Position numbers and translations under genes: made by a program. DNA of 64,000 nucleotides from Gammaproteobacteria bacterium. GTDB lineage: Bacteria > Pseudomonadota > Gammaproteobacteria > Eutrophobiales > Eutrophobiaceae. The notes beneath the pieces were generated by a model. The model was given only the letters and a program-made list of their open reading frames with translations, did no database searches and was not told the origin of the DNA. The DNA lies in assembly GCA_965215365.1 (NCBI GenBank), contig CBDCDS010000003.1, forward strand, positions 632,383-696,382, written 5' to 3'. Numbering within the stretch: the first letter of the stretch is position 1; each line of letters begins with the position of its first letter. Of this stretch, positions 1,738 to 57,790 are shown piece after piece.

Positions 1738-2553
1738 ATGTGGCGTCGTCGCAAGTCTATCAGTGACGCCGATTGGGTGGCCGCGCTGGACGCTGTTCCC
1801 ATGCTTGCCCCGCTTGCTGACGCTGAGCGCTTACAACTCAGGGAACTGTCTGCGCGTTTTATCGCCAGCAAATCCATTGAACCGGTGCGCGGACAGCGCC
1901 TCGATACGGCTGATCTTGTTGTGTTGGCCGCGCAAGCCTGCCTGCCGGTACTGGCCCTGGGTCTTGAGGCTTACGCCTCGTGGCAGAGTGTTGTGGTTTA
2001 TCCCGGCGGGTTTGTTGCGCGTGAACGCGAGGTGGACGAAGCCGGGGTCGAACACGAATGGGATGAGGCACGCGCCGGCGAGTCCTGGTTGCGCGGCCCG
2101 GTCATCCTGTCCTGGGAGGACGTTCTGGCCTCAGGACAAGGCGAGGGTTATAACGTCGTCATCCACGAGATGGCGCACAAGCTCGATATGCTCGACGGCG
2201 AGGCCAACGGCCGCCCGCCACTGCACCGGGAGATGGACGCAGAGCTCTGGCGCCGCGACTTCCGCGCCGCCTTCGACGACCTGAAACGTCGTATCGATGC
2301 CGGTGAGAAATCGGCAATCGATGACTACGCAACCACCGACCCCGGTGAGTTCTTTGCCGTGACCAGCGAGTATTTCTTTGACGCCCCCGGTGTGCTTGCC
2401 GACGAGTATCCGGCCGTTTATACGCGCCTGAGCGAATTCTATCGCCAGCGCCCACGCGCGCGCTTTGAGCGGTCAAAAGCAGTTTATCGTGAAAAGTTGC
2501 CGGGCAAGGGCAATAACAGTACCATTGACTCAGCTCATCCGCCCAGAAGATAA
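1738..2553 (+). CDS. mtfA: MtfA-like zinc-dependent peptidase (M90 family)
   Basis: HEMAHKLD zinc-binding motif. Length of 271 aa and overall sequence are typical of MtfA / DUF980. Confidence 0.65.
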   Translation: MWRRRKSISDADWVAALDAVPMLAPLADAERLQLRELSARFIASKSIEPVRGQRLDTADLVVLAAQACLPVLALGLEAYASWQSVVVYPGGFVAREREVDEAGVEHEWDEARAGESWLRGPVILSWEDVLASGQGEGYNVVIHEMAHKLDMLDGEANGRPPLHREMDAELWRRDFRAAFDDLKRRIDAGEKSAIDDYATTDPGEFFAVTSEYFFDAPGVLADEYPAVYTRLSEFYRQRPRARFERSKAVYREKLPGKGNNSTIDSAHPPRR

Positions 2554-2585
2554 AATTACACAAAGAAAATGACCACCGAACAACT

Positions 2586-2948
2586 TTGGGGGACAGAGGA
2601 ATCCCCTTAGAAAATCTGACGGGTTCGGAACATGACGACATCCTGGCAGGTGACCGGCGTGATAACTTTCTCATTGGCGGCGGCGGGCACGACACCTTCA
2701 AGCTCTCCACCGACCCGTTCTTTTATGCCTCGTGGCTCAACCAAGTGGAGCGATGGTTCGGACTCATCACGCAACAGGCTATCCGACGCGGCTCCTTCTC
2801 CTCAGTGAAACAACTTGTCAACAAAATCAACCAATTTGTGAACCACTACAATGATAACTCTCGCCCCTTCGTCTGGACTGCCACGGCTGAATCCATCCTC
2901 AACAAAGTAGAAAGATTATGCACAGTTATTTCCGGGACAGCACACTAG
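2586..2948 (+). pseudogene. mosaic remnant: an RTX-type Ca-binding repeat fragment (about 2586-2700) fused to an IS630-family transposase C-terminal fragment (about 2700-2948)
   Basis: N-terminal part carries GGxGxDxUx-like nonapeptides (LAGDRRDNFLIGGGGHDTFK). C-terminal part, SWLNQVERWFGLITQQAIRRGSF...YNDNSRPFVW, is the conserved end of IS630/Tc1 DDE transposases. No intact N-terminus is present. Confidence 0.55.
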
Positions 2949-3205
2949 AGGTGGCCATTCAAGCGGATTTATGCCCTTGTGCGGGTGCCGACCAGAGTTT
3001 TTCCAGTTGGTAATAGTCTCTGGTATCGGGGTGCATGACGTGGGCAATGACGTCGCCGAAGTCGATCAGAATCCACTCTGCCTGCTGCCGGCCTTCCACA
3101 CCCAGCGGTCTGATCTGCCGGGCCCGCGCCACCTCTATCACCTTGTCCGCAATGGCCTTGACCTGACGGTCGGAAGCGCCGCTAGCGATGATCATGTAAT
3201 CGGTC
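2901..3205. repeat. 305-bp direct repeat (left copy) flanking the IS1634-like element; identical to 5099-5403
   Basis: Base-for-base identity to 5099-5403 by direct reading. Contains the 3' end of the IS630 fragment and the 3' 78 codons of rsfS. Confidence 0.85.
2959..3195 (-). pseudogene. truncated duplicate of rsfS (C-terminal 78 codons only)
   Basis: Translation is identical to the C-terminus of the full rsfS at 5157-5495. It lies inside the 305-bp direct repeat. Confidence 0.8.
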
Positions 3206-5098
3206 CCGACTTCGACGGTCTGGTGCTTACTTTATCTGAAAATCTCTTGTAAATCAAAACGTGTTTTGGAGCAGGCAGTTGTAGTGCCTAGTTGATATTT
3301 GTAGCTTGACATTGTGGGCGGCGCGTGGTATCCTCCGGGCTATGTTCGTGCGCGTCAAAACCACCCCCAACAGCCCGCGTCAATCCGTACAACTCGTCGA
3401 GTCAGTGCGTGACGGCAAGGCCGTGCGCCAGCGCATTGTGCGCCATATCGGTATTGCCTTCGATGAAGACGAGCTCGTCCGGCTCAAAGACTTAGCCGAA
3501 GTGGTCAAAGCCAAACTTCAGGCCGAGACCCAGCCCGAGCTGTTCCCGCCCGAAGATGTCGCCGAGCAACTCAGCGCCGCCCGCGCCCGGCAGGACGACT
3601 CACCGCTGAAAGTCGAGCTCAAAGCCCTGCGGGAAACCCAGCGTGTCATCAGCGGCATCCATGCGGTGTACGGCGCCGTGTACGAGGACTTAGGGCTGTC
3701 CCGGTTGCTGCCAGCCTGGCGCTACCGGGCCTCGCACAAAGCGCTGTTCCATACGGTGATGGCGCGCCTAGCCAACCCGGACAGCAAACGGGCCAGTGTG
3801 CGCGCCCTGACAGCCGACTTCGGCGTGCAAGTGTCCCTGCCCCAAATCTACCGCATGATGGACTTGCTCGATGCGGCCTGTATCGAACGCCTCAATACCC
3901 TGGCCGAGACCCAAGCCCGGGCGCTGCTCGGCGGGCCGCTACGCGTGCTGTTCTTCGATTGCACCACCTTGTACTTTGAATCATTCACCGACGATGAGCT
4001 CAAACAACCCGGCTACAGCAAAGACGCCAAGTTCAAAGAATGCCAGGTGCTGCTGGCCCTGGCCGTCACCGACACCGGCCTGCCCGTGCGCTACACCGTG
4101 CTGCCCGGCGCCACCTTCGAGGGACACAGCCTCATCCCGGTGGTCAAAGCCTTACAAACCGACTGTCAGGCCGACAACGCCGTGGTCGTTGCCGACCGGG
4201 GGCTGCTGAGCAGGGATAACCTCAGCGCCTTAGAGGACGCCGGCCTGCACTACATCGTCGGTGCCCGACTCAAGTCCCTGCCGCACGCCCTGCAAACCCA
4301 AGTGCTCGATGAAGACCGCTATGAGACCCTGACAGATAGCGACGGACTGCGGGTGGCGGACCTACCCCACGACTCCCGCCGTCTGGTGGTGGGCTACTCC
4401 CCAGTGCGTGCCGAGAAAGACCGGCATGACCGCGACCAGGCCATCGCCAAGCTCCGTGAGAAACTGGCCAAAAGCCAAAACCCCAAAGACCTGCTCAACA
4501 ACTACGGTTATAAGAAATACCTCAAGGTAGACGGCAACAGTACCCTCAGCGTCAACCCCGATAAAATTGCCCAAGCACAACGCTGGGACGGCCTGCACGG
4601 GGTTATCACCAACCTGCCAACATCTACCACCGCCCCCGCCATCTTAAGCCAGTATCGCGGCCTGTGGCAGGTCGAAGATACCTTCCGGGTAAGTAAGCAC
4701 GATCTCAAGATAAGACCCATCTACCACTGGACCCCCCGACGCATCGAAGCCCACATCGCCATCGCCTTTATGTCCCTGCTCTGTGTCCGACACCTGCAAT
4801 ACCGCATGACCCTGCAAGCCAAGCCGGTCTCCCCCGAAGTCATCCGCAACGCGCTGGCCCACGTGCAGCACAGTGTCCTGACACATCAACAGACACACCG
4901 CCGCTACGTGATTCCCTCCGCCATCAGTGAAACCGCCCGGCGCCTCTACAAAATCATGGGATTGAGTCACTCCACCACCCCCTACGAGCTCAAATAGCCC
5001 GCCCCTGAGAACGCCGAAACAAGGCAATTGTAGTGCCTACGGGTCAACGCGCCTTCAATAAAATCAATCAGTTAGAGAAATAAACCGTCGAAGTCGGG
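3206..5098 (+). mobile_element. IS1634-like insertion sequence (IS4 superfamily), about 1.9 kb, with 14-15-bp terminal inverted repeats (CCGACTTCGACGGT)
   Basis: Left end cccgacttcgacggt and right end accgtcgaagtcggg are perfect inverted repeats. A single 563-aa transposase ORF lies inside. The element is flanked by 305-bp direct repeats. Confidence 0.75.
3306..4997 (+). CDS. DDE transposase, IS1634 family-like (IS4 superfamily)
   Basis: 563 aa. The N-terminus MFVRVKTT...SVQLVESVRDGKAVRQRIVRHIG resembles IS1634-group transposases. It sits between the IRs. Confidence 0.7.
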   Translation: MTLWAARGILRAMFVRVKTTPNSPRQSVQLVESVRDGKAVRQRIVRHIGIAFDEDELVRLKDLAEVVKAKLQAETQPELFPPEDVAEQLSAARARQDDSPLKVELKALRETQRVISGIHAVYGAVYEDLGLSRLLPAWRYRASHKALFHTVMARLANPDSKRASVRALTADFGVQVSLPQIYRMMDLLDAACIERLNTLAETQARALLGGPLRVLFFDCTTLYFESFTDDELKQPGYSKDAKFKECQVLLALAVTDTGLPVRYTVLPGATFEGHSLIPVVKALQTDCQADNAVVVADRGLLSRDNLSALEDAGLHYIVGARLKSLPHALQTQVLDEDRYETLTDSDGLRVADLPHDSRRLVVGYSPVRAEKDRHDRDQAIAKLREKLAKSQNPKDLLNNYGYKKYLKVDGNSTLSVNPDKIAQAQRWDGLHGVITNLPTSTTAPAILSQYRGLWQVEDTFRVSKHDLKIRPIYHWTPRRIEAHIAIAFMSLLCVRHLQYRMTLQAKPVSPEVIRNALAHVQHSVLTHQQTHRRYVIPSAISETARRLYKIMGLSHSTTPYELK

Positions 5099-5403
5099 AA
5101 CAAAGTAGAAAGATTATGCACAGTTATTTCCGGGACAGCACACTAGAGGTGGCCATTCAAGCGGATTTATGCCCTTGTGCGGGTGCCGACCAGAGTTTTT
5201 CCAGTTGGTAATAGTCTCTGGTATCGGGGTGCATGACGTGGGCAATGACGTCGCCGAAGTCGATCAGAATCCACTCTGCCTGCTGCCGGCCTTCCACACC
5301 CAGCGGTCTGATCTGCCGGGCCCGCGCCACCTCTATCACCTTGTCCGCAATGGCCTTGACCTGACGGTCGGAAGCGCCGCTAGCGATGATCATGTAATCG
5401 GTC
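5099..5403. repeat. 305-bp direct repeat (right copy) flanking the IS1634-like element
   Basis: Identical to 2901-3205. Confidence 0.85.
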
Positions 5404-5495
5404 ATGGGGCTCGATGCGCGTACATCGAAGGTCTGTATGTCCCGGGCTTTAAGGTCGTCCATGGTGGCGGCGAGCAGACGGGTGAGGCTGTTCAT
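5157..5495 (-). CDS. rsfS: ribosomal silencing factor RsfS (Iojap/YbeB)
   Basis: 112 aa with the Iojap-like sequence. Conserved position downstream of nadD, with a 4-bp overlap. Confidence 0.85.
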   Translation of the reverse strand: MNSLTRLLAATMDDLKARDIQTFDVRASSPMTDYMIIASGASDRQVKAIADKVIEVARARQIRPLGVEGRQQAEWILIDFGDVIAHVMHPDTRDYYQLEKLWSAPAQGHKSA

Positions 5496-6205
5496 GTGTA
5501 TAACTGGCGCTCCTTGATGTAAGCGTGGACGCCGGGGGGCAGGAGACGCTCTGCAGGCCCCGCTTCGTGCAGCAATGCGCGCGCCTGTGACGATGAAATA
5601 TCCGGGACTGTGAGCGCGGCGCGGTGGATACAGCCGGCCCGGCGCTCATGCAGGCGCGCCGCGTCAGGGCAGGCGCGCGCGTCATAATACTCGCGCAACG
5701 GTTCGCGCCAGGTCGTTGGCCGCGCCGCGCCCCGGTCGATGATCACCAGGTGTGCATGGTCGGTGAGCTCGCGCCAGCGGCGCCAGCTGGGCAGGGTGGC
5801 AAACGCGTCCGCGCCCAGGATGAAACAGAATGATTGCTGCGGCGCGGCGGCGCGCAGGCTGAGCAAGGTGTCGATAGTGTAGGACATCCCGCCCCGGTCG
5901 ATCTCGATGGCACTGGAGGTCAGTTGCGGATAGGGCCGCAACGCCAGTTCCAGCATGGCCAGCCGCGGCTGCGGCCCGGCGCTGGCAACGACTTTATGGG
6001 GTGGGATATGAGCCGGGATAAAACGCACTTCCTGCAGATCCAGGATGTCGAGACAGGCCCGTGCAATCTGAATATGAACGCTATGCACCGGATCAAAGGC
6101 GCCACCAAGCAAACCGATGGGCTTCCCTTCACTCACTGCCGGGCGTCTCGAAGGTGCTGTGAGCGGCGCTTTCAGGGGTTCCTTACTCTCTGATATGACC
6201 ATCAC
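5492..6205 (-). CDS. nadD: nicotinate-nucleotide adenylyltransferase
   Basis: [15 protein letters not shown] (the HxGH nucleotidyltransferase motif). Conserved synteny proA-nadD-rsfS. Confidence 0.85.
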
Positions 6206-7439
6206 CGATAACGATGAACTTCTGCGAGGTCAACCCTTCCAGCCCCACCGGGCCGCGCGCATGGAACTTGTCGGTGCTGATGCCGATCTCCGCGCCCAGG
6301 CCGTACTCATAACCGTCGGCGAAGCGGGTCGAGGCATTCACCATGACCGAACTGGAATCGACCTCGGCTAGGAAGCGCCGGGCGTGGGCCAGGTTTTCGG
6401 TGACAATGGCGTCGGTGTGCCTCGAGCCGTAGCGCGCGATATGTTGCAGCGCTTCATCGAGGCCGCTGACGACCCGCAACGACATGATCGGTGCCAGATA
6501 CTCCGTATAGTAATCCGCGTCGGTCGCAGCCGTTATCTGCGGCAGGATTTGCCGGGCCCGGGCATCGCCGCGTATCTCCACGCCGGCCTCAGCCAGCATG
6601 GGGCCGAGGCGCGCCAGCACGGCTTCGGCTTGCGCCTCTGCCAACAGCAGGCACTCCATGGTGCAGCAGGTGCCGTAACGCTGGGTCTTGGCGTTATAGG
6701 CGATGGTGACGGCCTTGTCCACATCCGCATGCGTATCCACATAGACATGGCAGACCCCGTCCAGATGCTTGATCACCGGCATTCTGGCCTCCTTGCTGAT
6801 GCGTTCGATGAGCCCCTTGCCGCCGCGCGGGATAATCACGTCGATATACTCGCTCAGGGTCAGCAGCTCGCCCACCGCGGCGCGGTCGGTAGTCTCTACC
6901 ACCTGCACCGCCGCGCCCGGCAGGCTGGCGTCCTGCAAGCCGGCGGCAATGGCGGCGGCAACGGCCTGATTAGAATTGATCGCCTCGGAGCCGCCTCTCA
7001 GGACGGTCGCATTGCCGGATTTTATGCACAGGCCGGCGGCGTCGGCGGTGACGTTGGGGCGGGACTCGTAGATAATGCCCACCACCCCCAGCGGCACGCG
7101 CATCCGCCCCACCTGAATCCCGGTCGGCCGATAGTTCAGATCCGTGACCGCGCCGATAGGATCCGGCAACGCCGCCACCTGTTGCAAGCCGTCAGCCATG
7201 GCCTCGAGGCGCGCCGGGGTCAACTCCAACCGGTCCAGCAATGGCGCCGCCAGCTGTTGTTCCCGCGCCGCGGCAAGGTCGGTGGCATTCGCTGCGAAAA
7301 TGGTTTCGCGGCGCGCTCGCAGATGTTCGGCCACGGCCGCCAGCGCAGCGTTTTTTGCGCCCGTGTCGGCGCGCGCCATAGCCCGCGCCGCGTCCCGCGC
7401 GGCGCGCCCCAGTGACTGCATATAATCCCGAATAGTCAT
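6183..7439 (-). CDS. proA: gamma-glutamyl phosphate reductase
   Basis: 418 aa. ProA/aldehyde dehydrogenase family sequence in the conserved position upstream of nadD. Confidence 0.85.
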
Positions 7440-7446
7440 GCGGTTG

Positions 7447-8475
7447 TCATGCTCTTTTACGCTCCAGCCGGTGCCCGCTCAGGCTGAACAGGAAGCGCTC
7501 CAGCAGTTGCCAGCCATCCGCCGGCAGCGCGCCTTTCAGAGCCTTGTCCACCTCTAGGGCGTCAACCAGCAGCGCCGACATAGCTGCCGGACTGAGGCGC
7601 GCCAACAGCATTTTAAGCCCCTTCCGGTCGCGCTCCAACACCCGCTGGGCCTGATATACCTGCTCTTGCGGTTTGCCGCGCGCCACCTCATGGGCGATCG
7701 CGCCGGCGCGCCGCAAGCCCCACATCAGCGCGCCATACACACTGAGCGGCTCGGCGCCTTCGTGTTTAAGTCCGCGCAACATCCTAGCGACGCGTTCGGA
7801 GCGCCCCAGAAAGACGTTCTCAATCAGGTCGAACACCTGGTAACGGGCACTGTCCACCACCATGTTCAACACCGCGTCACGGTCGATATCCGCCTGTTCC
7901 ACCAGCAACGCCAGTTTATCAATTTCCTGCTGTGCCGCCAGCAGGTTGCCCTCCACCCGTTGCGCCACCAGCTGTGCGGCCTCCCGGGTCATCTGTTTCC
8001 CCTGCGCCCGGCAGCGGTCCATAATCCAGCCCGGCAATCTGGCTCCCTCAACCGGCCAGATCTGCATGCAACAGCCTTGTTGTTCCAGTGCCTTGAACCA
8101 TTTCGTCTGCTGAGTCTTGCGGTCAATACGCGCCGTGGTCAACAGCAACAGGTTATCCGCAGCACACCCGGCTGCGTAATCGGTCAGGGCCGCGCCACCT
8201 TCCCGGCCGGGCTTGCTGCTACCCAGCCGCAACTCGATGATGCGACGACTGGAAAACAGCGACAGGTTGGCGCCGGCCTCACGCAGCTCGCGCCAGTCAA
8301 ATCCGTTGGCGGCATCCAGCACCACACGTTCTTCGTAACCCAGCGCGCGGGCGCGCGTGCGGATGCGGTCGCTGGCTTCCAGCATTTGCAACGGCTCATC
8401 GCCGCTGAGGTAATAGACCGGCAGTAGCTCGGGTTTACTCAGGTGCGCCGGGAGTTGCTCTGGCTTCAGTCGCAT
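7447..8475 (-). CDS. holA: DNA polymerase III delta subunit
   Basis: 342 aa, HolA-like, in the conserved leuS-lptE-holA arrangement. Confidence 0.8.
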
Positions 8476-14493: not shown

Positions 14494-15582
14494 ATGCGCA
14501 TTGAATGGCTGCACATCCGAAACGTTCGTAACCTGTCGGAACTGAGGTTAGAGCCGGCCGCCGGGCTTAACCTGATCTGTGGCCCGAACGGTAGCGGCAA
14601 GACGGCGCTGTTGGAAGCTATCTATTTTCTGGGGCGCTGTCGCTCATTTCGCACTGCCGCCATACAGCGGGTTATCCGCAACCAGCAACGCGCATTGCAG
14701 GTCAGCGCCGGATTGCTGCTTACCGATCAGCGTCGAATTGTTACGGGGGTGGAGCGCAGCCGGACGGCGCTCGATATCCGTTACAACAACACCACTGTGC
14801 ACAAGGTGTCCGAACAGGCAGCGCAGCTCCCCGTTATTACAATTATTCCGGAAAGCCACAGACTGGTTTCTGGCAGCCCGATATACCGCAGACGCTGGTT
14901 GGACTGGGCCATGTTTCACGTGGAACCACACTATATCAATCTCTGGCGGGACTATTACAAGGCGTTAAAACAGCGCAACAGCTTGCTTCGCTCGAACAGG
15001 GTCGAACAACTGGGTGCATGGGAACAAGCCATGGCGCGTGCCGCAGAAGCTATGACCGCACAGCGTACCGGCTTTATCGACGAACTGGCGGTGGCTATGA
15101 GCGCAGCCGCCCGGCGCTTGCAGATTGCACAAACTACGCTGGAATATGAGTGTGGTTGGCAGGCAGACACTGAGTTAGCCTCATTCCTCGCAGAGCAACG
15201 CAAAGGCGATCAGGAAAGAGGCACAACGCGACAAGGACTGCACCGCAGCGATATGACCATCCACCACGAGGGGAGGGAAGTCGGGCATTTTTATTCACGC
15301 GGGCAGATTAAGCTGTGCATTATTGCACTGTCGCTGGCCCTGGATAGTGTGTTCAGGAAGCGCACCGGGCGCATCCCGCTGATCTTGGCGGACGACCTGC
15401 CGGCGGAGTTGGATCAGAACAGCTTGCTGCGCGTTGTGGATGGATTGGCCGGGCAGGGGAGTCAGGTTTTCATCACTTCAACAGACTCGATTCCGGCAGT
15501 TTCACAGCATCCGCTAAAATTGTTTCACGTGGAACAGGGGCAGATTACCGACTCGGTGTTGTCCGGGTTCAGAAACAAGTGA
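14494..15582 (+). CDS. recF: DNA replication and repair protein RecF
   Basis: Walker A GPNGSGKT. RecF family; conserved position after dnaN. Confidence 0.9.
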   Translation: MRIEWLHIRNVRNLSELRLEPAAGLNLICGPNGSGKTALLEAIYFLGRCRSFRTAAIQRVIRNQQRALQVSAGLLLTDQRRIVTGVERSRTALDIRYNNTTVHKVSEQAAQLPVITIIPESHRLVSGSPIYRRRWLDWAMFHVEPHYINLWRDYYKALKQRNSLLRSNRVEQLGAWEQAMARAAEAMTAQRTGFIDELAVAMSAAARRLQIAQTTLEYECGWQADTELASFLAEQRKGDQERGTTRQGLHRSDMTIHHEGREVGHFYSRGQIKLCIIALSLALDSVFRKRTGRIPLILADDLPAELDQNSLLRVVDGLAGQGSQVFITSTDSIPAVSQHPLKLFHVEQGQITDSVLSGFRNK

Positions 15583-15613
15583 GACTCGAATAGACAAAAA
15601 ATCGGGTAGTGAA

Positions 15614-16045
15614 GTGTGTAAAGTGATTTCGATTAACTTACACAGGAGGACTACCCGATGCAGATCAAAAGGTAAGCGGGTGAAATCATATCGCAGTTGG
15701 CGCGTGGATGATACTACCGATGCTGACGCGCGCGGTCGTTTGAAGCAGTTGGAATGGGTTGCGACGTTACGCGAGGATGGGTGTGGTGAGGCGACGGCAC
15801 TGGCAGCAGTAGGTGGGTCGAGGGCGACCTACAACGGCTGTGTAGAACGCGCCAATGCCACCAGCCGCTATGAGTTCTATCCGTTCTACGAGGGTCCACT
15901 GACCGTGGCGGCCATCAACCGCAAACTGGCCGAGTATCAGCAATACTACAATACCTACCGCCCGCATGACGGTATTGGTTTATTAACCCCAATGGAGTAT
16001 TATCAACAACTCACACAGCCTGCCTCTGAGTCTCATATGTATTGA
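15614..16045 (+). pseudogene. integrase-core (rve) transposase C-terminal fragment, IS3/IS481-type
   Basis: Ends with ...YYNTYRPHDGIGLLTPMEYYQQL, a typical rve C-terminus. The N-terminal part is not transposase-like and there is no DDE N-terminus. Confidence 0.55.
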
Positions 16046-16060
16046 ACCTGGACAATCCGG

Positions 16061-26033: not shown

Positions 26034-26077
26034 GGGAACCTCTAAAAATACCCTCCGTGGTATTTTTAGAGGTTCCC
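26034..26077. repeat. REP-like perfect hairpin GGGAACCTCTAAAAATACC-CTCCGT-GGTATTTTTAGAGGTTCCC
   Basis: 19-bp perfect inverted repeat with a 6-nt loop. Family members are at 31509, 37969, 41221, 45211, 50189, 55794 and 56838. Confidence 0.8.
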
Positions 26078-26080
26078 ATC

Positions 26081-26380
26081 ACTTATTGAGAGCCATCATG
26101 TTTCACAAGGCAACAAGCGACTGGGTGAGATCTGCGGGATAGCCCGCATATCTCACCGAGTGATGCGAAGATCGCGCCGGATTGGTTCTGCCTGCGGGTG
26201 CCTGCGACCGAAACCATAGTGGTTCTCTGGTTGAGGAAGCACGTGCCTGCAGGCAGAACCAAGACCCGCGAGGGCGCATCAAGCGCAGTGGGTTATGGGG
26301 AAAGAGTAGCAGTATGATCATCACTTATTGAGAGCCATCATGTTTCACAAGGCAACAAGCGACTGGGTGAGATCTGCGGG
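26081..26380. repeat. MITE-like element, inverted orientation: 58-bp terminal partial copy plus one full 238-bp copy separated by ATAG; ends 17 bp before the bcp start codon
   Basis: Reverse complement of the 239-bp unit at 31690-31928, with terminal inverted repeats CCCGCAGATCTCACCCAGT / ACTGGGTGAGATCTGCGGG. Confidence 0.8.
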
Positions 26381-26397
26381 CTAAGGGTGACGCGACT

Positions 26398-45626: not shown

Positions 45627-45652
45627 TGGGTCGTATGCGAGAATGGTTTTCC

Positions 45653-46333
45653 CTACCCCTCCAACACCGCCCGGGCCAGACACCAGACTTGTACCTGTTC
45701 GGCGCCGTGGGCTTTCAGCAAACGCGCCAGCTCGTTAGCGGTGGCGCCGGTGGTCAGGACATCGTCGATGAGGGCGATATGTTTGTAACTCATGGTCTTC
45801 ACCAGAGAAAAAGCATTCTTAACGTTGCGCGCCCGGTGTTCGGGACGCAGGTCGAATTGTTGTGCCGTGGGTTTATGCCGGCGCACCAGCTGCTCATCGA
45901 CGGGGACCGACAGGGCGCGCGCCAGCAGCTGCGCGATTTCCCGGGCCTGATTAAAACCGCGCCGCCGTTGCCGGGCGCGGTGTAACGGGATCGGCAGCAG
46001 GCACTCCGGTGGCGCCTGACGCGCCGGCTCAAGCAGTTCGATAAGCGGCCCGGCCAGGGCGCGCGCCAGGTCCAGGCGGGCCTGATATTTCAGCTTCCTG
46101 ATCATCCGGTCCACCGGATAGTGGTAGCTGTGCGCGGCGATGCAGACATCGAACGCAGGCGGCCTGGCGAGACAACGGACGCAGACCGCGGCCTGTTCCG
46201 ACTGCGCGCCGCAACCGGGACATATTGCGCTCGGCAACGGCAGCAAATCCTCCCGGCAGGCGCGGCAAAAGCCGTCCGCGCTGGCGCCAGCGCGCGCGCC
46301 GCACAAGACACAGACAGGGTCAATGAACATCAT
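45653..46333 (-). CDS. comF: ComF-family phosphoribosyltransferase (GntX)
   Basis: N-terminal CxxC pairs and the C-terminal PRTase motif [11 protein letters not shown]. Divergent from bioB. Confidence 0.8.
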
Positions 46334-46396
46334 CGGGTCAACCCCTGGAAACTACAGGTGTTGACAGGATTCGATTCGAGGTTAACATATTCATCC

Positions 46397-47485
46397 ATGT
46401 TGAACGAACCAACAGCGTCCAAGTCCGCAGAGGCAGTAGCCCCGAAGACAGTAGCCGGAAAAACGGCAGCCGCGCAAACAACGACCAGAACAGCTCCCGG
46501 GCCGGAGCCCAAGCATGACTGGAGCCTGGATGAGATCATAACACTTTACCGGCAGCCCTTGAACGATTTATTGCAGCGCGCACACACCGTCCACCGCCGC
46601 AACTTTGACCCGAATCGCATCCAGTTGAGTACCTTACTTAATATCAAGAGCGGTGGTTGCCCGGAAGACTGCGCCTATTGCCCGCAGAGCGTGCGCTATA
46701 ACACCGGACTGGAAAATGAGACTTTGATGTCCTGTGAACAAGTGCTGGACGCGGCGCGGCGCGCGCGCGACTCGGGCGCCAGCCGGTTTTGTATGGGCGC
46801 GGCCTGGCGCAGCCCGAAAGACCGGGACCTCGATCAGGTTGTGGCGATGGTCGCCGGGGTCAAACAACTGGGCCTTGAAACCTGTGTAACGCTGGGAATG
46901 CTGAAAGACGGGCAGGCCGCGCGCCTGCGCCAGGCCGGCCTGGATTACTACAACCATAATCTCGATACCTCCGAAGAATTTTACGATCAGGTCATCACCA
47001 CCCGCAGCTACCAGGACCGCCTTGATACCTTGCAACAGGTGCGTGATGCCGGTATCAATGTCTGCTGCGGCGGCATTATCGGCATGGGCGAGTCGGTGAC
47101 CGATCGGGCCGCGCTGTTGCAGACCCTGGCCAACCTGCCGCAACAGCCGGAGAGCGTGCCCATCAATACCCTGGTCAAGGTGTCTGGCACCCCGCTGGAC
47201 GCACAGGACGATATCGACCCGCTGGAACTGGTGCGCACCGTCGCCTGTGCCCGCATCCTGATGCCGAACGCATACCTGCGTCTGTCTGCCGGGCGCACCG
47301 ACTTGAGCGATTCGACTCAGGTCCTGTGTTTTTTTGCCGGCGCCAACTCCATCTTCTACGGTGAGAAGCTGCTGACCACGGATAACCCGCAATTCAATGA
47401 GGATCAGTCCCTGTTTGAACGCCTGGGGTTGACCCCTGATACGGACCCGGTCTCCGCAGCATGCGCGACCGCGCCGGGCGGTTAA
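46397..47485 (+). CDS. bioB: biotin synthase (ORF track begins at 46121; start set at MLNEPT)
   Basis: Radical-SAM CPEDCAYC motif; BioB family. Confidence 0.9.
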
Positions 47486-48666
47486 TGGTCCAAGCGCCGC
47501 CGCCGGATCCGTTTTCACTGGCAACCGGGCTGGACCGGATCAGGGCTGCGGGACAATTCCGCCGCCGGTATATGCTGACTGCTGCGCAGGGTGCCACGAT
47601 ACAGGTCGAAGGGCGCAGCTATGTCAACTTTTCCGGCAACGATTACCTCGGCCTTGCCGGCGACGCGCGTTTGGCGCAGGCGTTTCAAACCGCCGCCGCC
47701 CGTTACGGGGTGGGCAGCGGCGCCTCGCAACTGCTATCCGGCTACAACCGCATGCACGCGCAGCTCGAAGAGGCGGTTGCCGCACACTTAGGGCGCGCCC
47801 GCGCGCTGCTCTTTTCCAGCGGTTACCTGGCCAACCTGGCCGTAGTCACCAGCTTTGCCAGGCGTCGGGAGGACCGGGTGGTGATGGATCGGGACAATCA
47901 CGCCTCGCTCATAGATGGTGCCTTGCTGGCGCGCGCCGGCCTGCGCCGTTATGCGCACCATGATCTGGCCGGGCTGGAAAACCTGCTTGGCAAGGGCCGC
48001 ACCCTGGTGGCCACCGACGGGGTGTTCAGCATGGACGGCAGCATCGCCGCATTACCGGACCTGGTCGCCTTGTGCGCCCGCCATGGTGCCCTGCTGGCCG
48101 TGGACGATGCCCACGGTTTCGGGGTGCTGGGCGCGACCGGCGCCGGCTCACCGGAGCATTTTTCCCTAGACCAAAATCAGGTTCCCATCCTCATGGCCAC
48201 CTTCGGCAAGGCCTGTGGCGTTATGGGCGCGTTCGTGGCCGGGTCGGAAGACGTGATAGAAACCCTGATCCAGACCGGACGCACCTGCATTTACAGCACC
48301 GCCATGCCGCCGGCCCTGGCCGCCGCCGCGACTACGGCACTGCATCTCAGCGTCCGGGAAAGCTGGCGCCGGGATAAGTTGCAGGCGCTGGTGCAACGCT
48401 TTACGCAAGGGGCGCGGCAACTGGACTTGCCGGTATTACCCTCCACTACGCCGATCCAGAGCTTTATGGTAGGCAACGCGGCGCTGGCGCTCAGCGGCAG
48501 CGAATATCTGCGCGCCGCCGGCATCCGGGTCAGCGCCATCCGGGCGCCCACGGTTGCGCGAAATACCGAGCGCCTCAGGATCACATTGAGCGCCGGTCAC
48601 AGCGAACAGCAGGTGGACCGGCTGCTGGAACACCTGGCGCAACTGGCGCGGCGGCTGGCGCCATGA
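47461..48666 (+). CDS. bioF: 8-amino-7-oxononanoate synthase
   Basis: PLP-dependent class II aminotransferase, FSGNDYLGL, located between bioB and bioC. Confidence 0.85.
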
Positions 48667-49604
48667 ACGATCCTGCCTACCAGCGTGATAAAACTGGCGT
48701 GCGGCGCAACTTCAGCCGCGCCGCGCCTGATTACGAGCGCGTGGCCGTGTTGCAACAGACCATCGGGCAACGCCTGCTGGAGCGCCTAGAAGTGATCAAG
48801 CTGACGCCGCAGCGCATACTGGACCTGGGGGCTGGCGCCGGTCGCCTGTCGGTGCAACTGGCGCAACGTTACCACCGCGCCCGGCTGGTGCAACTGGATC
48901 TGGCCTTGGGAATGTTGCAACAGGCCGGCCAAGGGCCGGATTTTTCCGCTCGGCAGTCGCTGCTGTGCGCCGATGCCGAGCACTTGCCACTCGCCGGGGA
49001 GTGCGTGGAGTTCGCCTTCTCCAACCTCATGTTGCAATGGGTCACGCAACTCGATAGAACGCTGGCAGAGGTGTACCGGGTGTTGCGCCCCGGCGGCCTG
49101 CTGCTGTTTGCCACGTTCGGGCCGGATTCCTTGGCGGAGTTGCGGGCAAGCTGGGCCCGCGTGGATGATTATGTGCACGTCAACGCCTTCACCGATATGC
49201 ACGACGTGGGTGATGCCCTGGTACGGGCCGGTTTTGTTGAACCGGTGATGGAAACGGAGTCCTTTACCCTGGTTTATGATGACGTACCAACACTGTGTCG
49301 GGAACTCAAGAGTCTGGGCGCCGGCAATGTCAACGCCGGCCGGCGCAAGACCCTGACCGGCGCCGGCGCGTTCCGTGCCATGCAGGCCGAGTACCGGCGC
49401 CGCTACGCGCATGCAGAGGGCGTGCCGGCCACCTTCGAGGCCATCTACGGCCACGCCTGGGTACCGGAGGTAAAGCAGCCACGGCAGGCAGGGCTGGAGC
49501 CCGGGGTTTTTCCGATTACTTTCTCGACCTCTAGCAGCCTGTCGGACTTGACCGCCAAGCTGCTAGGCGCTCGTCGTGACGAATATATTCATCACCGGCA
49601 CTGA
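48663..49604 (+). CDS. bioC: malonyl-ACP O-methyltransferase BioC
   Basis: SAM-MTase motif I ILDLGAGAG in the bio operon. The C-terminal tail overlaps bioD. Confidence 0.75.
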   Translation: MNDPAYQRDKTGVRRNFSRAAPDYERVAVLQQTIGQRLLERLEVIKLTPQRILDLGAGAGRLSVQLAQRYHRARLVQLDLALGMLQQAGQGPDFSARQSLLCADAEHLPLAGECVEFAFSNLMLQWVTQLDRTLAEVYRVLRPGGLLLFATFGPDSLAELRASWARVDDYVHVNAFTDMHDVGDALVRAGFVEPVMETESFTLVYDDVPTLCRELKSLGAGNVNAGRRKTLTGAGAFRAMQAEYRRRYAHAEGVPATFEAIYGHAWVPEVKQPRQAGLEPGVFPITFSTSSSLSDLTAKLLGARRDEYIHHRH

Positions 49605-53168: not shown

Positions 53169-54401
53169 TTAAATAAACATTTGCTGCAACAGCCCCTGCT
53201 TGAAGAAGCAGGCCTGTTCGACCTGTTTCGCTACCAGTTCTATTTTCCGGTCGATGGCGGAGAGGAAATTGGCGATTTTTTGTTGTTCACATTTTGAGGG
53301 TATGCTTAATTTGAGGAATCTGAGATGAGAAGCATATAAATGAATAACCGATATTCCCTGCGCCAATCTGGCTATATCAGCCTTCTTATAATTCAAATAA
53401 TACGCAAGAAACACCCCGTTTTCCTGGCAGCGAATTATGTTTATGTCACCTCCCAGCGCAACCCCGTCAAGCCTTACACAAGCGGCGGTTGCTATGTCTG
53501 ATGCAATCTCGCCGGATGAGGGAATAATGACATCGTTTTTGTTGCTCAATTCCAGCTGAGAAGGTGGGATATTAGTGCTCGAAATTACCAGGGAAATTGT
53601 AGTTCCATAGTGGGTGTAGAGTTCCCCATACCTGATACACTTTAATTCTCCATTTGTTACGACATCGCTCTTTGAAATTCCTTTACCCTTACTTATCTTT
53701 GAAATATCACCCAATGATTTCTCCTCCCAATCCGGATAATCCCTCCCATCCTCATCCTTGAACCGAATTTCCTGACTGAACAGTTTTTGCATCATGCCTT
53801 GCTTGTACTGTTCCAGCAGCGACTGCTTCCGGCTCAGTTGCTCAATTTTGATATCAACCGCCGACAGGAAAGCAGCGATTTTTTGTTGTTCTCTTATAGC
53901 CGGAATACATAGTGGGATCTTTTTGATCTCACTCTTGCTTATTTCAAGGAAGGTAGAACCATTTGCTCTACGCAAAAAATGCTTTTTGTTTGCAAGAAGC
54001 CAATAGTAAAGATACTCATTTGAGAACATTGAGTCATTTACAATAAACGACTGAAACCCCTGGTTTGTTGTGCAGACTTCACGAGCAATGCTGACCTCGC
54101 CTATTGTTGCCCTGCTGGTGAATAAAATTGTCCCAACAGGCAGTAAGGCAGCAGAGGATTGAGCAATACCTTCCCTGGTTATTTTGCGGATACTGCCAGT
54201 AGCATATTTCGTCTTGATTTCTGTCGGAGTGAACCAGTTTATATCACCGTCCCATAAGCTCCTCTTGCCAGTGCTGGGGGTGCCACCCCCAACAATATCT
54301 CCGACATGATCCAACTTTTTCATCTCCCAATCCGGATAATCCCCCCCATCCTCATCCTTAAACCGCAACGCCGGCACGCGTTGTTGTTGTGCTGTAATCA
54401 T
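53169..54401 (-). CDS. hsdS: type I restriction-modification S (specificity) subunit
   Basis: 410 aa with two target-recognition domains, each preceded by the conserved repeat RFKDEDG(G/R)DYPDWE. Confidence 0.85.
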   Translation of the reverse strand: MITAQQQRVPALRFKDEDGGDYPDWEMKKLDHVGDIVGGGTPSTGKRSLWDGDINWFTPTEIKTKYATGSIRKITREGIAQSSAALLPVGTILFTSRATIGEVSIAREVCTTNQGFQSFIVNDSMFSNEYLYYWLLANKKHFLRRANGSTFLEISKSEIKKIPLCIPAIREQQKIAAFLSAVDIKIEQLSRKQSLLEQYKQGMMQKLFSQEIRFKDEDGRDYPDWEEKSLGDISKISKGKGISKSDVVTNGELKCIRYGELYTHYGTTISLVISSTNIPPSQLELSNKNDVIIPSSGEIASDIATAACVRLDGVALGGDINIIRCQENGVFLAYYLNYKKADIARLAQGISVIHLYASHLRFLKLSIPSKCEQQKIANFLSAIDRKIELVAKQVEQACFFKQGLLQQMFI

Positions 54402-54659: not shown

Positions 54660-55043
54660 ATGAACCTGCATGTGACTATTCCTGAGAGCAAGGCGTTGGC
54701 GGCTTTTTGCCTAGAGAACGGTATCATAAAGCTGGCTGTTTTCGGCTCAGCCCTGCGCGAGGATTTCAACGCGGAAAGTGATATTGACCTGTTGGTCAAG
54801 TTCAGGCCTGAGGCCGCTGCTGACTTGTTCAAAATGGCTGGAATTGAAATTGCCCTTTCTCCATTGTTTGGCGGACGCAGTATCGACCTGCGCACGCTGG
54901 AGGAGCTGAGTCCCTACATCAGAGGTAGAGTACTTAACGACGCAATATTACTGGTAGATATTGCTGCGTCGGAAGACGAAGGGAGTAAAGTAAGGCATGA
55001 CCATTCCAGCGCGGCCGATGTGATAACCCATGTCCATCATTGA
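54660..55043 (+). CDS. MNT-domain nucleotidyltransferase (MntA-like antitoxin of a HEPN/MNT pair)
   Basis: GSALRED...SDIDLLV (GSx10DxD nucleotidyltransferase motif). Confidence 0.75.
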   Translation: MNLHVTIPESKALAAFCLENGIIKLAVFGSALREDFNAESDIDLLVKFRPEAAADLFKMAGIEIALSPLFGGRSIDLRTLEELSPYIRGRVLNDAILLVDIAASEDEGSKVRHDHSSAADVITHVHH

Positions 55044-55413
55044 TGACAATACCCGGTTACGGCACATGCTGGACGCAGGATGTGAAGCTATTGAAATGAG
55101 TAAGGGTAAAAGTCGAAATGATTTGGCCAATGATCGTAAGCTGTCCTTAGCATTGGTGAAGCTTTTGGAGACTGTTGGAGAGGCTGCGTATAAGGTGTCA
55201 CAGGAAAAAAGACTTGAACTTGATCAAATTGAGTTTGAAAAGATCATCAAAATGCGTCATCGGCTTGTCCACGACTATTTCGACATTAACTACGGCGTTA
55301 TCTGGAATACGATACAAAATAGCCTGCCTGAATTGGTGAGGCAACTTCAAGAGCTGCCCGAATGCAGCAATGATATGGTGCCTGCCTCATCGATGCCTTT
55401 AGATAAATGGTAG
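55030..55413 (+). CDS. HEPN-domain protein (HepT-like toxin)
   Basis: RHRLVHDY (the Rx4-6H HEPN motif). Overlaps the MNT gene by 14 bp. Confidence 0.7.
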   Translation: MSIIDDNTRLRHMLDAGCEAIEMSKGKSRNDLANDRKLSLALVKLLETVGEAAYKVSQEKRLELDQIEFEKIIKMRHRLVHDYFDINYGVIWNTIQNSLPELVRQLQELPECSNDMVPASSMPLDKW

Positions 55414-55454
55414 TGGAGACACCTGTGAGTCCTGGTTGCGCTCCCCGGTCATAC

Positions 55455-55612
55455 CGACTATCAGGTGGCATTGCGGGAAATAGAAACCCTGATGACGGCC
55501 CGGCCGGATTCGCCCGAGGGTGGAAAACTGGATGTGTTGACGACACTGGTCGAAGCATACGAGCGCAGGCATTATCCTCTGGAGCTACCCGATAATGAAC
55601 TGCCGCGCTAGC
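55455..55612 (+). pseudogene. HigA-like antitoxin N-terminal fragment (about 90% nt identity to 56494-56640)
   Basis: Encodes ...[46 protein letters not shown] then an immediate stop. The HTH domain is missing. Confidence 0.7.
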
Positions 55613-55793
55613 GCTGTTCGCAGTCCAGCAGATAATCATCTACCGCTTCCTTGAAGGCCTGTTCAAGTTGTTCTACGTTTTGACCTTCATAGCTGACCAG
55701 CGGTTCAATAAATTCCAACTTCCCGAAAAGACAATTATCCTCTATGCTGGCTTGTACGGAACCGTAAAAGCCCTTGTAACTGAATAAACTCAT
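55608..55793 (-). pseudogene. truncated hicB (first 60 codons only, identical to 57611-57790)
   Basis: Identical N-terminus to the full hicB. It diverges and stops at the junction with the higA fragment. Confidence 0.7.
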
Positions 55794-56014
55794 GGGAACC
55801 TCTAAAAATACCCTCCGTGGTATTTTTGCTGTGTAAATTTTGAAGATTTACATACTGGCGGGGTGTGCAGCGCTCTGATCATGAGGGTTTAGAGACGGAA
55901 ACGAAAAAGTATGATTTTTCGTTTCCTTCATTTTCAAGCACTTACGTGCTTGCTGTTACTGGCAGCACATCCCTGTGCTGCACGGGCGCCTCGTGTTTGT
56001 GAGAGGCACCCTCA
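55794..56014. repeat. full-length composite REP-like element (about 220 bp) made of several hairpin modules
   Basis: Contains all hairpin modules seen individually elsewhere (26034, 37969-38118, 25320, 45211). Confidence 0.75.
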
Positions 56015-56145
56015 TAACATTTTCGCTCGAATAAGATGGTCTGAATTATGATGTGGCACAACCTTATTTGCAACTACAAATGAGTTACTGTTGTAATTTC
56101 CGGTATCGCTGGTTAGAATAGTCCCGATTTAGGACATATTGGATT

Positions 56146-56448
56146 ATGAGAATTATTGCGCTCTCCACACTAAAGCAGTTCTGGGAGCGGAATGTTGCAT
56201 ACATGGATGCTGCGGAGCCGGTCCGGGTCTGGTATCGGCGCGTGTTACGGGCTGATTGGGCGTCTCCTTCTGACGTCAAACGGGATTTTGGCAATGCCAG
56301 CATCCTGAAGGATGGACGGGTGGTGTTTAACATAGCAGGCAACAAGTATCGATTGGTGGTATGGATCAATTACGCCTACCGTGTGGTTTACATAAGGTTT
56401 ATCGGTACCCATAACCAATATAACCAAATCGATGCACAGGCGATTTAA
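56146..56448 (+). CDS. higB: HigB-family toxin (RelE/ParE superfamily)
   Basis: 100 aa with VVFNIAGNKYRLVVWINYAYRVVYIRFIGTH. Directly upstream of an XRE-type HigA. Confidence 0.75.
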   Translation: MRIIALSTLKQFWERNVAYMDAAEPVRVWYRRVLRADWASPSDVKRDFGNASILKDGRVVFNIAGNKYRLVVWINYAYRVVYIRFIGTHNQYNQIDAQAI

Positions 56449-56451
56449 TCC

Positions 56452-56838
56452 TTGGAAAAACAGTTGATGGATGTCAAACCTATCAGAACAGATACCGACT
56501 ACCAGGCGGCACTGCGGGAAATAGAAACCCTGATGACGGCCCGGCTGGATTCGCCCGAGGGTGAAAAACTGGATGTGTTGACGACACTGGTTGAAGCGTA
56601 TGAACGCAAGCATTATCCTTTGGAGATGCCCGATGCGATAGCGGCTATCAGATTTGAAATGGAACAACAGGGATTGAAGGCAAAAGACTTGGAACCGATG
56701 ATTGGGAAGCGAAACCGCGTTTATGAAGTGTTGAACGGGAAACGTTCCCTCACGCTGAAAATGATCTGGCGTCTGCATGAGCAGTTGGGCATCCCCGCCG
56801 AATCGTTGATTAAGCAGCCTTCCCGGCCTGGTAATTAA
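56452..56838 (+). CDS. higA: HigA-family antitoxin (XRE helix-turn-helix)
   Basis: 128 aa with a C-terminal HTH (KDLEPMIGKRNRVYEVLNGKRSLTLKMIWRLHEQLGI). Confidence 0.75.
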   Translation: MEKQLMDVKPIRTDTDYQAALREIETLMTARLDSPEGEKLDVLTTLVEAYERKHYPLEMPDAIAAIRFEMEQQGLKAKDLEPMIGKRNRVYEVLNGKRSLTLKMIWRLHEQLGIPAESLIKQPSRPGN

Positions 56839-56872
56839 AGGCCACCTCTAAAAAATTAGAGGTGGCCGTGCA

Positions 56873-57434
56873 GCAGTACCCTCAGCGTCAACCCCGATAA
56901 AATTGCCCAGGCACAACGCTGGGACGGCCGGCACGGCGTCATCACCAACCTGCCGACATCCACCGACACGACCGCCATCTTAAGCCAGTACCGCGGCCTG
57001 TGGCAGGTCGAAGACACCTTCCGGGTAAGTAAACACGACCTCAAGGTCAGACCCATCTACCACTGGACCCCCCGACGCATCGAAGCGCACATCGCCATCG
57101 CCTTTATGTCCCTGCTCTGTGTCCGACACCTGCAATACCGCATGACCCTGCAAGCCAAGCCCGCATCCCCCGAAGTCATCCGCAACGCGCTGGCCCACGT
57201 GCAGCACAGTGTCCTGACACATCAACAGACACACCGCCGCTACGTGATTCCCTCCGCCATCAGTGAAACCGCCCGGCGCCTCTACAAAATCATGGGGTTA
57301 AGTCACTCCACTACCCCCTACGAGCTCAAATAGCCGGTCGCTGAGAACGCCGAAACAAGGCAATTGTAGTGCCTACGGGTCAACGCGCCTTCAATAAAAT
57401 CAATCAGTTAGTGAAATAAACCGTCGAAGTCGGG
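56873..57434 (+). mobile_element. truncated copy (3' 562 bp including the right IR) of the IS1634-like element
   Basis: About 97% identical to 4538-5098. The 5' truncation point abuts a REP hairpin at 56838-56870. Confidence 0.8.
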
Positions 57435-57454
57435 AGAATGATCCGGCCAACGCG

Positions 57455-57790
57455 CTAGCGCTGTTCTACGGCTCGTTCAATGGACAGCTTGACGAATTCG
57501 TTCAGGTTGAGATTGTTTTCTTTTGCGGTGATGAGCGCATGCCTGTGCAATTCCGGGCTGATACGCACATTAAATGAGCCTCTGCATGGCTTGGCAGGCT
57601 CCCTGCCAAGCTGTTCACAGTCCAGCAGATAATCATCTACCGCTTCCTTGAAGGCCTGTTCAAGTTGTTCTACGTTTTGACCTTCATAGCTGACCAACGG
57701 TTCAATAAATTCCAACTTCCCGAAAAGACAATTATCCTCTATGCTGGCTTGTACGGAACCGTAAAAGCCCTTGTAACTGAATAAACTCAT
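57455..57790 (-). CDS. hicB: HicB-family antitoxin with a C-terminal ribbon-helix-helix
   Basis: 111 aa. N-terminus MSLFSYKGFYGSVQASIEDNCLFGKLEFI is HicB-like. The C-terminus is CopG/RHH-like. Confidence 0.75.
   Translation of the reverse strand: MSLFSYKGFYGSVQASIEDNCLFGKLEFIEPLVSYEGQNVEQLEQAFKEAVDDYLLDCEQLGREPAKPCRGSFNVRISPELHRHALITAKENNLNLNEFVKLSIERAVEQR

Follow-up and report, generated by a model that had tools for sequence, protein, structure and literature searches.

A 64,000-nucleotide stretch of DNA from a gammaproteobacterium of the family Eutrophobiaceae (assembly GCA_965215365.1, contig CBDCDS010000003.1, positions 632,383 to 696,382), called the window below, carries an insertion sequence (IS) of the IS1634 family in rsfS, the gene of a ribosome silencing factor. 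The element is bracketed by two identical segments of host DNA, each 304 bp long. An earlier reading of the letters, made without database searches (the original prediction), had attributed these segments to transposition. The locus is described here and compared with related copies of the element in other genomes.

The rsfS locus

The features of the locus, in window coordinates, are the following.

2724-2956, plus strand: 5'-truncated remnant of an IS630-family element, with the C-terminal ~75 transposase codons (stop codon at 2946-2948).
2901-3204, no strand: left copy of the duplicated 304-bp target, matching 5099-5402 at every base and adjoining the left tip of the element.
2959-3204, minus strand: headless rsfS pseudogene, codons 32-112 and the stop codon, identical to the 3' part of the intact rsfS.
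3205-5098, plus strand: IS1634-family insertion sequence, 1,894 bp, its limits taken from the comparison of junctions with relatives.
3205-3219, plus strand: left terminal inverted repeat CCCGACTTCGACGGT, 15 bp, perfect complement of 5084-5098.
3279-3292, plus strand: left conserved subterminal box TTGTAGTGCCTAGT, core TGTAGTGCC invariant in 7 aligned elements.
3306-3334, plus strand: sigma-70-like promoter from which the transposase gene would be read (hexamers TTGACA and TATCCT separated by 17 nt, with a TG extension).
3342-4997, plus strand: transposase gene, DDE type (D206, D285, E445), probably 551 amino acids (NF033559 IS1634, PF01609).
5027-5038, plus strand: right conserved subterminal box TTGTAGTGCCTA, core invariant in 7 aligned right ends.
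5084-5098, plus strand: right terminal inverted repeat ACCGTCGAAGTCGGG, placed by the repeat finder, the junctions and the aligned right ends.
5099-5402, no strand: right copy of the duplicated 304-bp target, matching 2901-3204 at every base and adjoining the right tip.
5157-5495, minus strand: intact rsfS, ribosome silencing factor, 112 amino acids, directly downstream of nadD (PF02410, TIGR00090).

Segments 2901-3205 and 5099-5403 are identical at 305 of 305 positions, and the similarity ends abruptly outside them on both sides. A perfect 305-bp repeat is not explicable by chance. The true duplicated target is nevertheless 304 bp long (2901-3204 and 5099-5402). The 305th matching base, the C at 3205 and 5403, is the first base of the element, which happens to be the same as the base next to the target. 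Relatives often show this coincidence too, because the target prefers C or G at that position.

The duplicated interval begins 58 bp past the stop codon of rsfS and ends exactly between codons 31 and 32. As the interval reaches beyond the stop codon, one complete rsfS has been kept. Codons 1-31 are missing from the left copy, and the mechanically called open reading frame (ORF) within it, 2959-3195, begins at an internal methionine. The product of the intact gene matches Pfam PF02410 (E 1.2e-33) and TIGR00090 (E 4e-36; 123 bits, cut-off 56.9; model positions 3-99 of 99).

The last 56 bp of the IS630 remnant (2901-2956) fall within the duplicated target. The remnant has a single terminal sequence, TAGAGGTGGCC at 2946-2956, and lacks a left end. 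Its match to the IS630 model NF033545 covers ~42 C-terminal residues (ORF residues 47-89 against positions 258-299 of 299; E 2.7e-7) and reaches 30 bits against a cut-off of 100, as a fragment would; weak Pfam matches to DDE_3 and HemolysinCabind lie in the same ORF. The part of this ORF upstream of the remnant (2586-2723) starts with a fragment of RTX calcium-binding nonapeptide repeats (HemolysinCabind, E 1e-4). Since one ORF holds both, the remnant is fused to a piece of an RTX gene.

The original prediction had described perfect 305-bp repeats that contain the end of an older IS630 fragment, with an intact rsfS on the right and a headless one on the left. The identity of the repeats, the IS630 fragment (as a weakly matching remnant) and the arrangement of the two rsfS copies all stand. 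The length of the duplication is one base less, and 81 rsfS codons are duplicated, not 78.

The element and its transposase

The tips of the element were placed by comparing the junctions across more than 60 related copies. The repeat finder reports a perfect inverted repeat, TCCCGACTTCGACGGT, at 3204-3219 and 5084-5099; the junctions show that the real tips are CCCGAC...GTCGGG. The conserved tips of the relatives are CCYGACTT...AAGTCRGG, and the left tip CCYGACTT is kept in all of them. The element tip CCCGACTT has C at position 1 and TT at positions 7-8, in agreement with the family end consensus C-----YT. With a length of 1,894 bp, a single ORF and a perfect 15-bp inverted repeat, the element lies within the range of the IS1634 family (1,500-2,000 bp) and is much as predicted (1.9 kb, inverted repeats of 14-15 bp).

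Counted inwards from the tips, the box TTGTAGTGCCTA is situated at ~75 nt on the left and ~60 nt on the right, in direct and not inverted orientation. Both subterminal boxes can also be written as TTGTAGTGCC boxes. The box was noted in the window element and at loci L004, L008, L009, L010, L014, L035 and L039, and in the alignment of left ends the invariance of the core reaches relatives with 39% amino acid identity. This conservation suggests a putative binding site for the transposase or for a host factor. Boxes in the same orientation may render the two ends of the element asymmetric.

The one long ORF of the element, 3306-4997, encodes 563 amino acids if begun at TTG, which was the size originally given for the transposase. 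The protein probably starts at the ATG at 3342 and has 551 amino acids, because the TTG at 3306 is part of the -35 box of a conserved promoter, downstream of which an ATG is conserved. The transposases of the relatives all begin with MF(V/I)R, and the identical 551-residue protein is present in public data (P0001). The promoter matches at 10 of 12 positions and is the sole promoter-like site within 2800-5600. Relatives with as little as 39% amino acid identity retain both of its hexamers, followed 7-8 nt later by an ATG. As the ATG in the window lies only 8 nt after the promoter, the transposase mRNA is probably leaderless.

The transposase scores 356.5 bits against NF033559 (transpos_IS1634; cut-off 100) over model positions 1-482 of 483, which bears out the assignment to IS1634 made earlier. 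The next-best NCBIfam family, IS4, is at 49 bits under its cut-off of 115, and IS1182, IS701 and other families are far under theirs. Pfam finds the DDE_Tnp_1 domain (PF01609) with 53 bits. Residues D206, D285 and E445 are invariant in 13 relatives, and the D285-E445 spacer is 159 amino acids long. The YREK signature reads Y438-x2-L441-x3-E445-x6-K452, with L441 in place of the arginine, also invariant in the relatives. Homologues on plasmids, with ~30% amino acid identity, carry the annotation of an IS1634 family transposase. The family has been defined by a long spacer between the second D and the E, a YREK motif usually without arginine, a length of 1,500-2,000 bp and C-----YT ends (PMC2266710). 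The window element agrees in everything tested except the typical AT-rich target duplication of 5-6 bp. This difference is not disqualifying; the members that gave the family its name deviate likewise.

Long duplications among relatives

A scan of species-representative genomes yielded 80 loci at 39-90% amino acid identity, and the comparative set in total comprises 63 insertions on 12 replicons. Direct repeats touching the tips were found at 55 of the 62 full-length copies with usable flanks (89%). These copies come from eight genomes: four gammaproteobacterial metagenome-assembled genomes (MAGs), Bdellovibrionales and Oxydemutatoraceae chromosomes, and Ruegeria and Kordiimonas MAGs. The repeats are 28-1,682 bp long (median 245, geometric mean 224), and nearly all are 100% identical. 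The 304 bp of the window falls in the middle of this distribution. Repeats at older copies have diverged slightly (L002, 97.1%; L087, 99.1%; L088, 99.8%).

Four repeats exceed 1 kb: those of L007 (~1,682 bp; 2218-3899 and 5806-7490), L016 (1,663 bp; 2182-3844 and 5765-7427), L009 (1,078 bp) and L049 (1,057 bp). That of L064 is close to it, at 967 bp. Complete mechanically called ORFs of 229 amino acids (L016) and 271 amino acids (L049) lie inside such duplications, so that one insertion can duplicate a whole gene. Two finished plasmids from cultured isolates have the same architecture. Plasmid pCNAC48 of Aliarcobacter cryaerophilus has a 680-bp repeat that duplicates part of a crp/fnr gene, and a plasmid of Mycobacterium sp. 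SMC-8 has a repeat of 44-45 bp. Their presence in finished isolate plasmids rules out an artefact specific to MAGs.

Inspection of ~70 junction pairs turned up no repeat of 5-6 bp. Relatives that are more distant and lie on ~2-kb contigs have the same tips and likewise no 5-6 bp repeat; these contigs are otherwise uninformative.

Target sites and lengths of the duplications

The target motif was derived from 108 junctions, two for each of 54 insertions, with the second junction reverse-complemented. Position +1 is A in 89 of the 108 (background 23%; chi-square p 2.5e-45), position +2 is A or G in 92, and position +3 is A in 57; on the other side of the joint, G or C occupies position -1 in 87 junctions and T occupies position -2 in 44. 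Outside Ruegeria, A is at +1 in 24 of 32 junctions. The motif is alike at both ends of the element and in mirror orientation. At these junctions each 3' end of the element is thus attached on the 5' side of a run rich in A, at (T)S^ARA. The target sites of the two ends are on opposite strands and face each other across the duplicated interval. In the window the junctions are c^AACAAA and g^ACCGAT.

The lengths of the duplications are distributed roughly log-normally from 28 to ~1,700 bp, and 9 of 56 intervals measure 28-54 bp. An apparent accumulation near 240 bp (10 of 56 lengths in 224-255 bp) is not significant (P 0.31 for a log-normal and 0.21 for an exponential distribution). Nor is there significant helical periodicity for periods of 8-13 bp, the best Rayleigh R being 0.29 before correction for the 51 periods scanned. 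Two simple rules for the choice of the second site were rejected. The second end does not take the nearest motif, as a median of 5 candidate TYT|S sites lies inside each duplication. The two sites are not paired through longer inverted repeats either, with 9.3 matches of 35 between sites of the same insertion and 9.7 between those of different insertions.

The sister strain

The original prediction had called for a comparison with related genomes. The exact RsfS protein was found on one public contig, contig_9 of ENA ERZ25072445 (locus L001), and this sole related genome has a single rsfS, no duplication and no element at rsfS, as would be expected if the duplication came with the element. L001 is 98.4% identical to window positions 10495-5155 (~5.3 kb) and runs uninterrupted across the right boundary of the duplication. 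The homology stops 2 bp past the rsfS stop codon. Downstream of rsfS, L001 has nadA, an EcoRI-like restriction-modification (RM) system and ruvCAB, where the window has the IS630 remnant instead. L001 is thus a partial, not a perfect, empty site, and it shows one rsfS copy as the ancestral state.

Five copies of the element (L086-L090) are present in the assembly of the sister strain. They have 98.4% nucleotide identity to the window element along its full 1,894 bp, and all encode the same transposase (P0121). The repeats that touch their tips are ~80, 150, 211, 219 and 568 bp long, with 99.1-100% identity. Neighbouring genes are split or duplicated at two of them, a PRTase-CE gene at L088 and a secretin/GspD gene at L090. 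The divergence of the element between the strains (1.6%) equals that of the flanking core genes, and the insertion sites differ. This suggests that the element is a long-standing, ancestral resident with turnover of its insertion sites. Empty sites for the five insertions of the sister strain were not found in the window, where only the distal flank of L090 has a match (45636-49535), ending 680 bp before the insertion.

Origin of the duplication

The structure is very probably the product of an active IS1634-family element that transposed into the 3' part of rsfS and generated a 304-bp target-site duplication. The repeats abut the tips precisely, their lengths are specific to each copy, the target motif is mirror-symmetric, and 89% of the copies show a duplication. 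The earlier claim that transposition produced the repeats is strengthened by the copies of the sister strain and the relatives, nearly all of which have long repeats directly at their tips, with lengths that vary from copy to copy.

Several observations weigh on the other side. There is no simple abutting repeat at 7 of the 62 related copies (L003, L018, L042, L047, L052, L063 and L079). Several of the seven involve adjacent or nested elements, and at L063 a second copy begins 22 bp past the first and a 115-bp repeat flanks the pair. Deletion-type outcomes, recombination or secondary insertions may account for these copies. A single element, the 1,992-bp one of Ruegeria and Kordiimonas, dominates the motif statistics with 38 of the 54 insertions, and the five copies of the sister strain have A at +1 in just 6 of 10 junctions. 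Typical members of the family are reported to make duplications of 5-6 bp, so the long mode is not family-wide. The empty site is imperfect, as L001 differs downstream of rsfS. A perfect one was sought in metagenome_contigs with a pattern of left flank, 295-315 N and right flank, and with a second pattern across the junction of the IS630 remnant and rsfS, each giving 0 matches. Look-ups of exact proteins (the 563-residue ORF, the M90 peptidase, ProA and a 120-residue ORF) likewise returned no records. Finally, what is set out below on strand transfer, on which end is joined first and on gap repair is deduced rather than observed.

Of the other explanations, unequal homologous recombination survives best, as a very unlikely one. 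Two independent copies of the element flanking the 304-bp interval, on sister chromosomes or in different cells, would undergo a crossover inside the element and leave interval-IS-interval, which is exactly the structure observed. The element is indeed present in several copies in the species, with five in the sister strain, and two adjacent copies occur at a few related loci (e.g. L059, L063 and L066). However, this route requires paired insertions within tens to hundreds of bp of each other at each of ~63 loci on 12 replicons. It also predicts a short duplication for every primary insertion, yet no junction has a 5-6 bp repeat. The reciprocal deletion product should be about equally common, which does not agree with the 89% of copies that show a duplication.

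It is hardly credible that the assembly process set one and the same unique flank to the left and to the right of a repeated element. Many of the related copies do come from MAGs. But the same architecture is found in independent assemblies, among them complete chromosomes and the finished plasmids of Aliarcobacter cryaerophilus (pCNAC48) and Mycobacterium sp. SMC-8, the slightly diverged repeats of older copies (L002, L087 and L088) are unlike the product of such an artefact, and the long direct repeats of IS1549 and IS1634 have been demonstrated experimentally (PMC2266710).

A tandem 304-bp segmental duplication that arose first and received the element later, exactly at its joint, is exceedingly improbable. 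Tandem duplications do arise spontaneously, but nothing specific suggests one here. The boundaries of the repeats agree with both tips to the single base, only one copy of the segment is present in the sister strain, and the same coincidence would be needed at more than 60 unrelated sites with varied lengths.

Proposed mechanism

What is generally known of the chemistry of DDE transposases allows an outline of the steps by which transposition would produce a long duplication. The element's two 3'-OH ends would attack opposite target strands, each at a separately chosen site. The distance between the sites would range from tens of bp to over 1,000 bp, with a 5' stagger, and would not be the 5-9 bp across one bent duplex. 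Extension from the two free target 3' ends would then copy the interval, so that it would come to lie on both sides of the element.

The two joining events might be sequential. In this variant, the transfer of the first end would be followed by unwinding or strand-displacement synthesis from the nick and by the later joining of the second end. This would fix the polarity and give broad, roughly log-normal lengths including very short values. Alternatively, two segments of a looped or supercoiled target might be captured simultaneously, for which the intervals of 28-54 bp are awkward, at least in the case of simple looping of naked duplex DNA. The sequential variant is slightly preferred because of these short intervals and the polarity bias, with low confidence. 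A link to replication through clamp binding is conceivable by analogy, because IS1634-family transposases bind the beta sliding clamp (PMC4549789). The C-terminus of the window transposase (...IMGLSHSTTPYELK) is conserved among the relatives, and inspection found no obvious QLxLF clamp motif in it.

Perfect 304-bp repeats 1.9 kb apart should be good substrates for RecA-dependent deletion, and such a loss would restore the locus precisely. Recombinational loss could explain why the surviving copies nearly always keep identical repeats. The identity of the two repeats had been taken as a sign of very recent transposition. It is compatible with that, but also with gene conversion or survivorship, and with self-erasure by recombination identical repeats are not strictly proof of a very recent insertion.

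Comparison with known elements

Members of the IS1634 family typically duplicate 5-6 bp, and long variable direct repeats of 8-514 bp have been reported only for IS1634 and IS1549, without a model (PMC2266710). The original prediction had regarded long duplications as a hallmark of the family; they are described for these two members only. IS1634 was described in Mycoplasma mycoides subsp. mycoides SC (Vilei et al. 1999) and IS1549 in Mycobacterium smegmatis (Plikaytis et al. 1998; both via De Palmenaer et al. 2008, PMC2266710). The window element resembles both in its family as determined by the hidden Markov model (HMM) of the transposase, its one ORF, its short inverted repeats and a length of ~1.6-1.9 kb, and also in its long direct repeats that vary between copies (304 bp in the window, ~80-568 bp in the sister strain, 28-1,682 bp in the relatives). 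Unlike IS1634 and IS1549, its relatives reach 1,057-1,682 bp. The hosts here are GC-rich Gammaproteobacteria; the two classical elements were compared by their description in the review and not by sequence. Plasmid-borne members from Actinomycetota are ~30% identical to the window transposase in amino acid sequence.

ISGka5 of Geobacillus kaustophilus makes a 6-bp duplication (PMC8024623), and an element of Acidiphilium sp. PM has 6-bp flanking repeats (PMC4549789). Elements of this type share with the window element the family HMM, the DDE triad, the YREK motif without R, the long D-E spacer, the C-----YT ends and a length of 1.5-2 kb. They differ in the target, which is AT-rich and 5-6 bp long in the short-duplication members and 304 bp long in the window. 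The IS4 family proper (IS10/Tn10, IS50/Tn5) has a related DDE_Tnp_1 domain (PF01609), and presumably, as in IS4 elements, the two 3'-OH ends attack the target. In IS4 members the YREK motif is complete and the duplications, made across one turn of bent target, have a fixed length of 8-13 bp (PMC2266710), and the window transposase, as given above, remains well under the cut-off of their HMM. IS1630 likewise makes variable duplications well above 10 bp (19-26 bp), with an enzyme that is different or unknown. RM gene units also insert with long variable target duplications, mostly of 45-50 bp (Furuta et al. 2010, PMC2853133); they have neither transposase nor inverted repeats and are not homologous to the element.

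Long variable duplications are thus already known as a habit of IS1634 and IS1549. The occurrence of the long mode throughout a clade, the (T)S^ARA motif and the upper limit of ~1.7 kb go beyond the account in PMC2266710 and are modestly new.

The truncated copy and other features of the window

The window holds one further trace of the element:

56873-57435, plus strand: 5'-truncated, diverged second copy of the element, its last ~560 bp, with the right inverted repeat at 57421-57435.

This copy represents element positions ~1335-1894; it is 94.4% identical to the intact element (blastn alignment to positions 1322-1896) and 93.9% identical to the copies of the sister strain. Its neighbours are a higA-like and a hicB-like gene within a type I RM locus, where a cluster of toxin-antitoxin genes (MNT/HepT, HigB/HigA and HicB/HicA; 54660-58086) is inserted between hsdS (53169-54401) and hsdM (58149-59738). 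The GC content of the cluster region is 47-53%, against ~60% elsewhere. The original prediction had listed the copy, at 56873-57434, as a third one and as a sign that the element had been active at least twice. The copy is real, as shown by its identity and its right inverted repeat, but it is the second. It is an older or foreign copy that may have arrived together with the low-GC RM/toxin-antitoxin island, and is therefore weak evidence for a second transposition in this genome.

No ancient long duplication could be established around the truncated copy; the partial repeats there (55451-56088 against 56492-58086) are mosaic and do not meet the tip. The segment 55451-56088 is a degenerate partial duplicate of higA', hicB' and the region upstream of hicA, in pieces that are 91%, 98.9% and 89% identical; GCTGTTC microhomologies border a 143-bp deletion in it. 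The truncation point of the copy directly adjoins a 28-bp palindrome of two IS630-type tips, GGCCACCTCTAAAAAATTAGAGGTGGCC, at 56840-56867. The terminal sequence TAGAGGTGGCC of the IS630 remnant occurs in it as well as at 2946-2956 and 5144-5154. The palindrome could be a tip-to-tip footprint, a minimal IS630-type miniature inverted-repeat transposable element or a terminator hairpin after higA.

Three further repeated or mobile sequences were observed. Fragments at 15560-16056 are 95-98% identical to a transposase gene of the sister strain with rve_3 and HTH_32 domains (IS481-like; L086 8332-9466), and would represent another mobile element common to both strains. A 243-bp unit at 31686-32255 forms 2.3 tandem repeats with 99% matches, has inverted partial copies ~5.5 kb away (26077-26386), and is 94% identical to sister-strain sequence (L087 10323-10572); it is apparently a dispersed or tandem repeat specific to the species. 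At 62614-62748, directly after mnmG/gidA (60470-62494), a 23-bp unit, CTATCGCTGAACTCGTTACAATT, is repeated ~5 times; these repeats may be iteron-like or origin-proximal.

Implications

The observations on the window and on the comparative set can be joined in a wider reading, for which the balance is about even. There would be a large clade of the IS1634 family that crosses phyla (Gamma- and Alphaproteobacteria, Bdellovibrionales, Campylobacterota and possibly Actinomycetota) and in which long-stagger insertion is the normal mode. The two ends would be joined independently at opposite-strand (T)S^ARA sites 28 to ~1,700 bp apart, up to three times the longest published distance, and the insertions would spare genes, be able to duplicate whole ORFs and erase themselves. 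If this is true, self-erasure would explain why nearly all repeats are identical, and why the element has diverged between the strains as much as the core genome (98.4% identity) although no shared site was seen in the few places open to comparison.

Elements of this kind have practical consequences. Tools that seek duplications of less than 15 bp will mis-annotate them, and their long repeats break short-read assemblies, so that many relatives stand alone on ~2-kb contigs. Their insertions create pseudogene fragments and, occasionally, gene duplications.

For this genome, the element is an ordinary mobile element that has left rsfS functional. For the family, the comparative set constrains models of insertion: the motif is symmetric at distant joints, duplication prevails over deletion, and there is neither helical periodicity nor extra complementarity between the sites. 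Apparently active, intact elements with a mapped promoter, tips and subterminal boxes have been identified and can be used in an assay. The old question of how one transposase makes variable and very long duplications thereby becomes directly testable.

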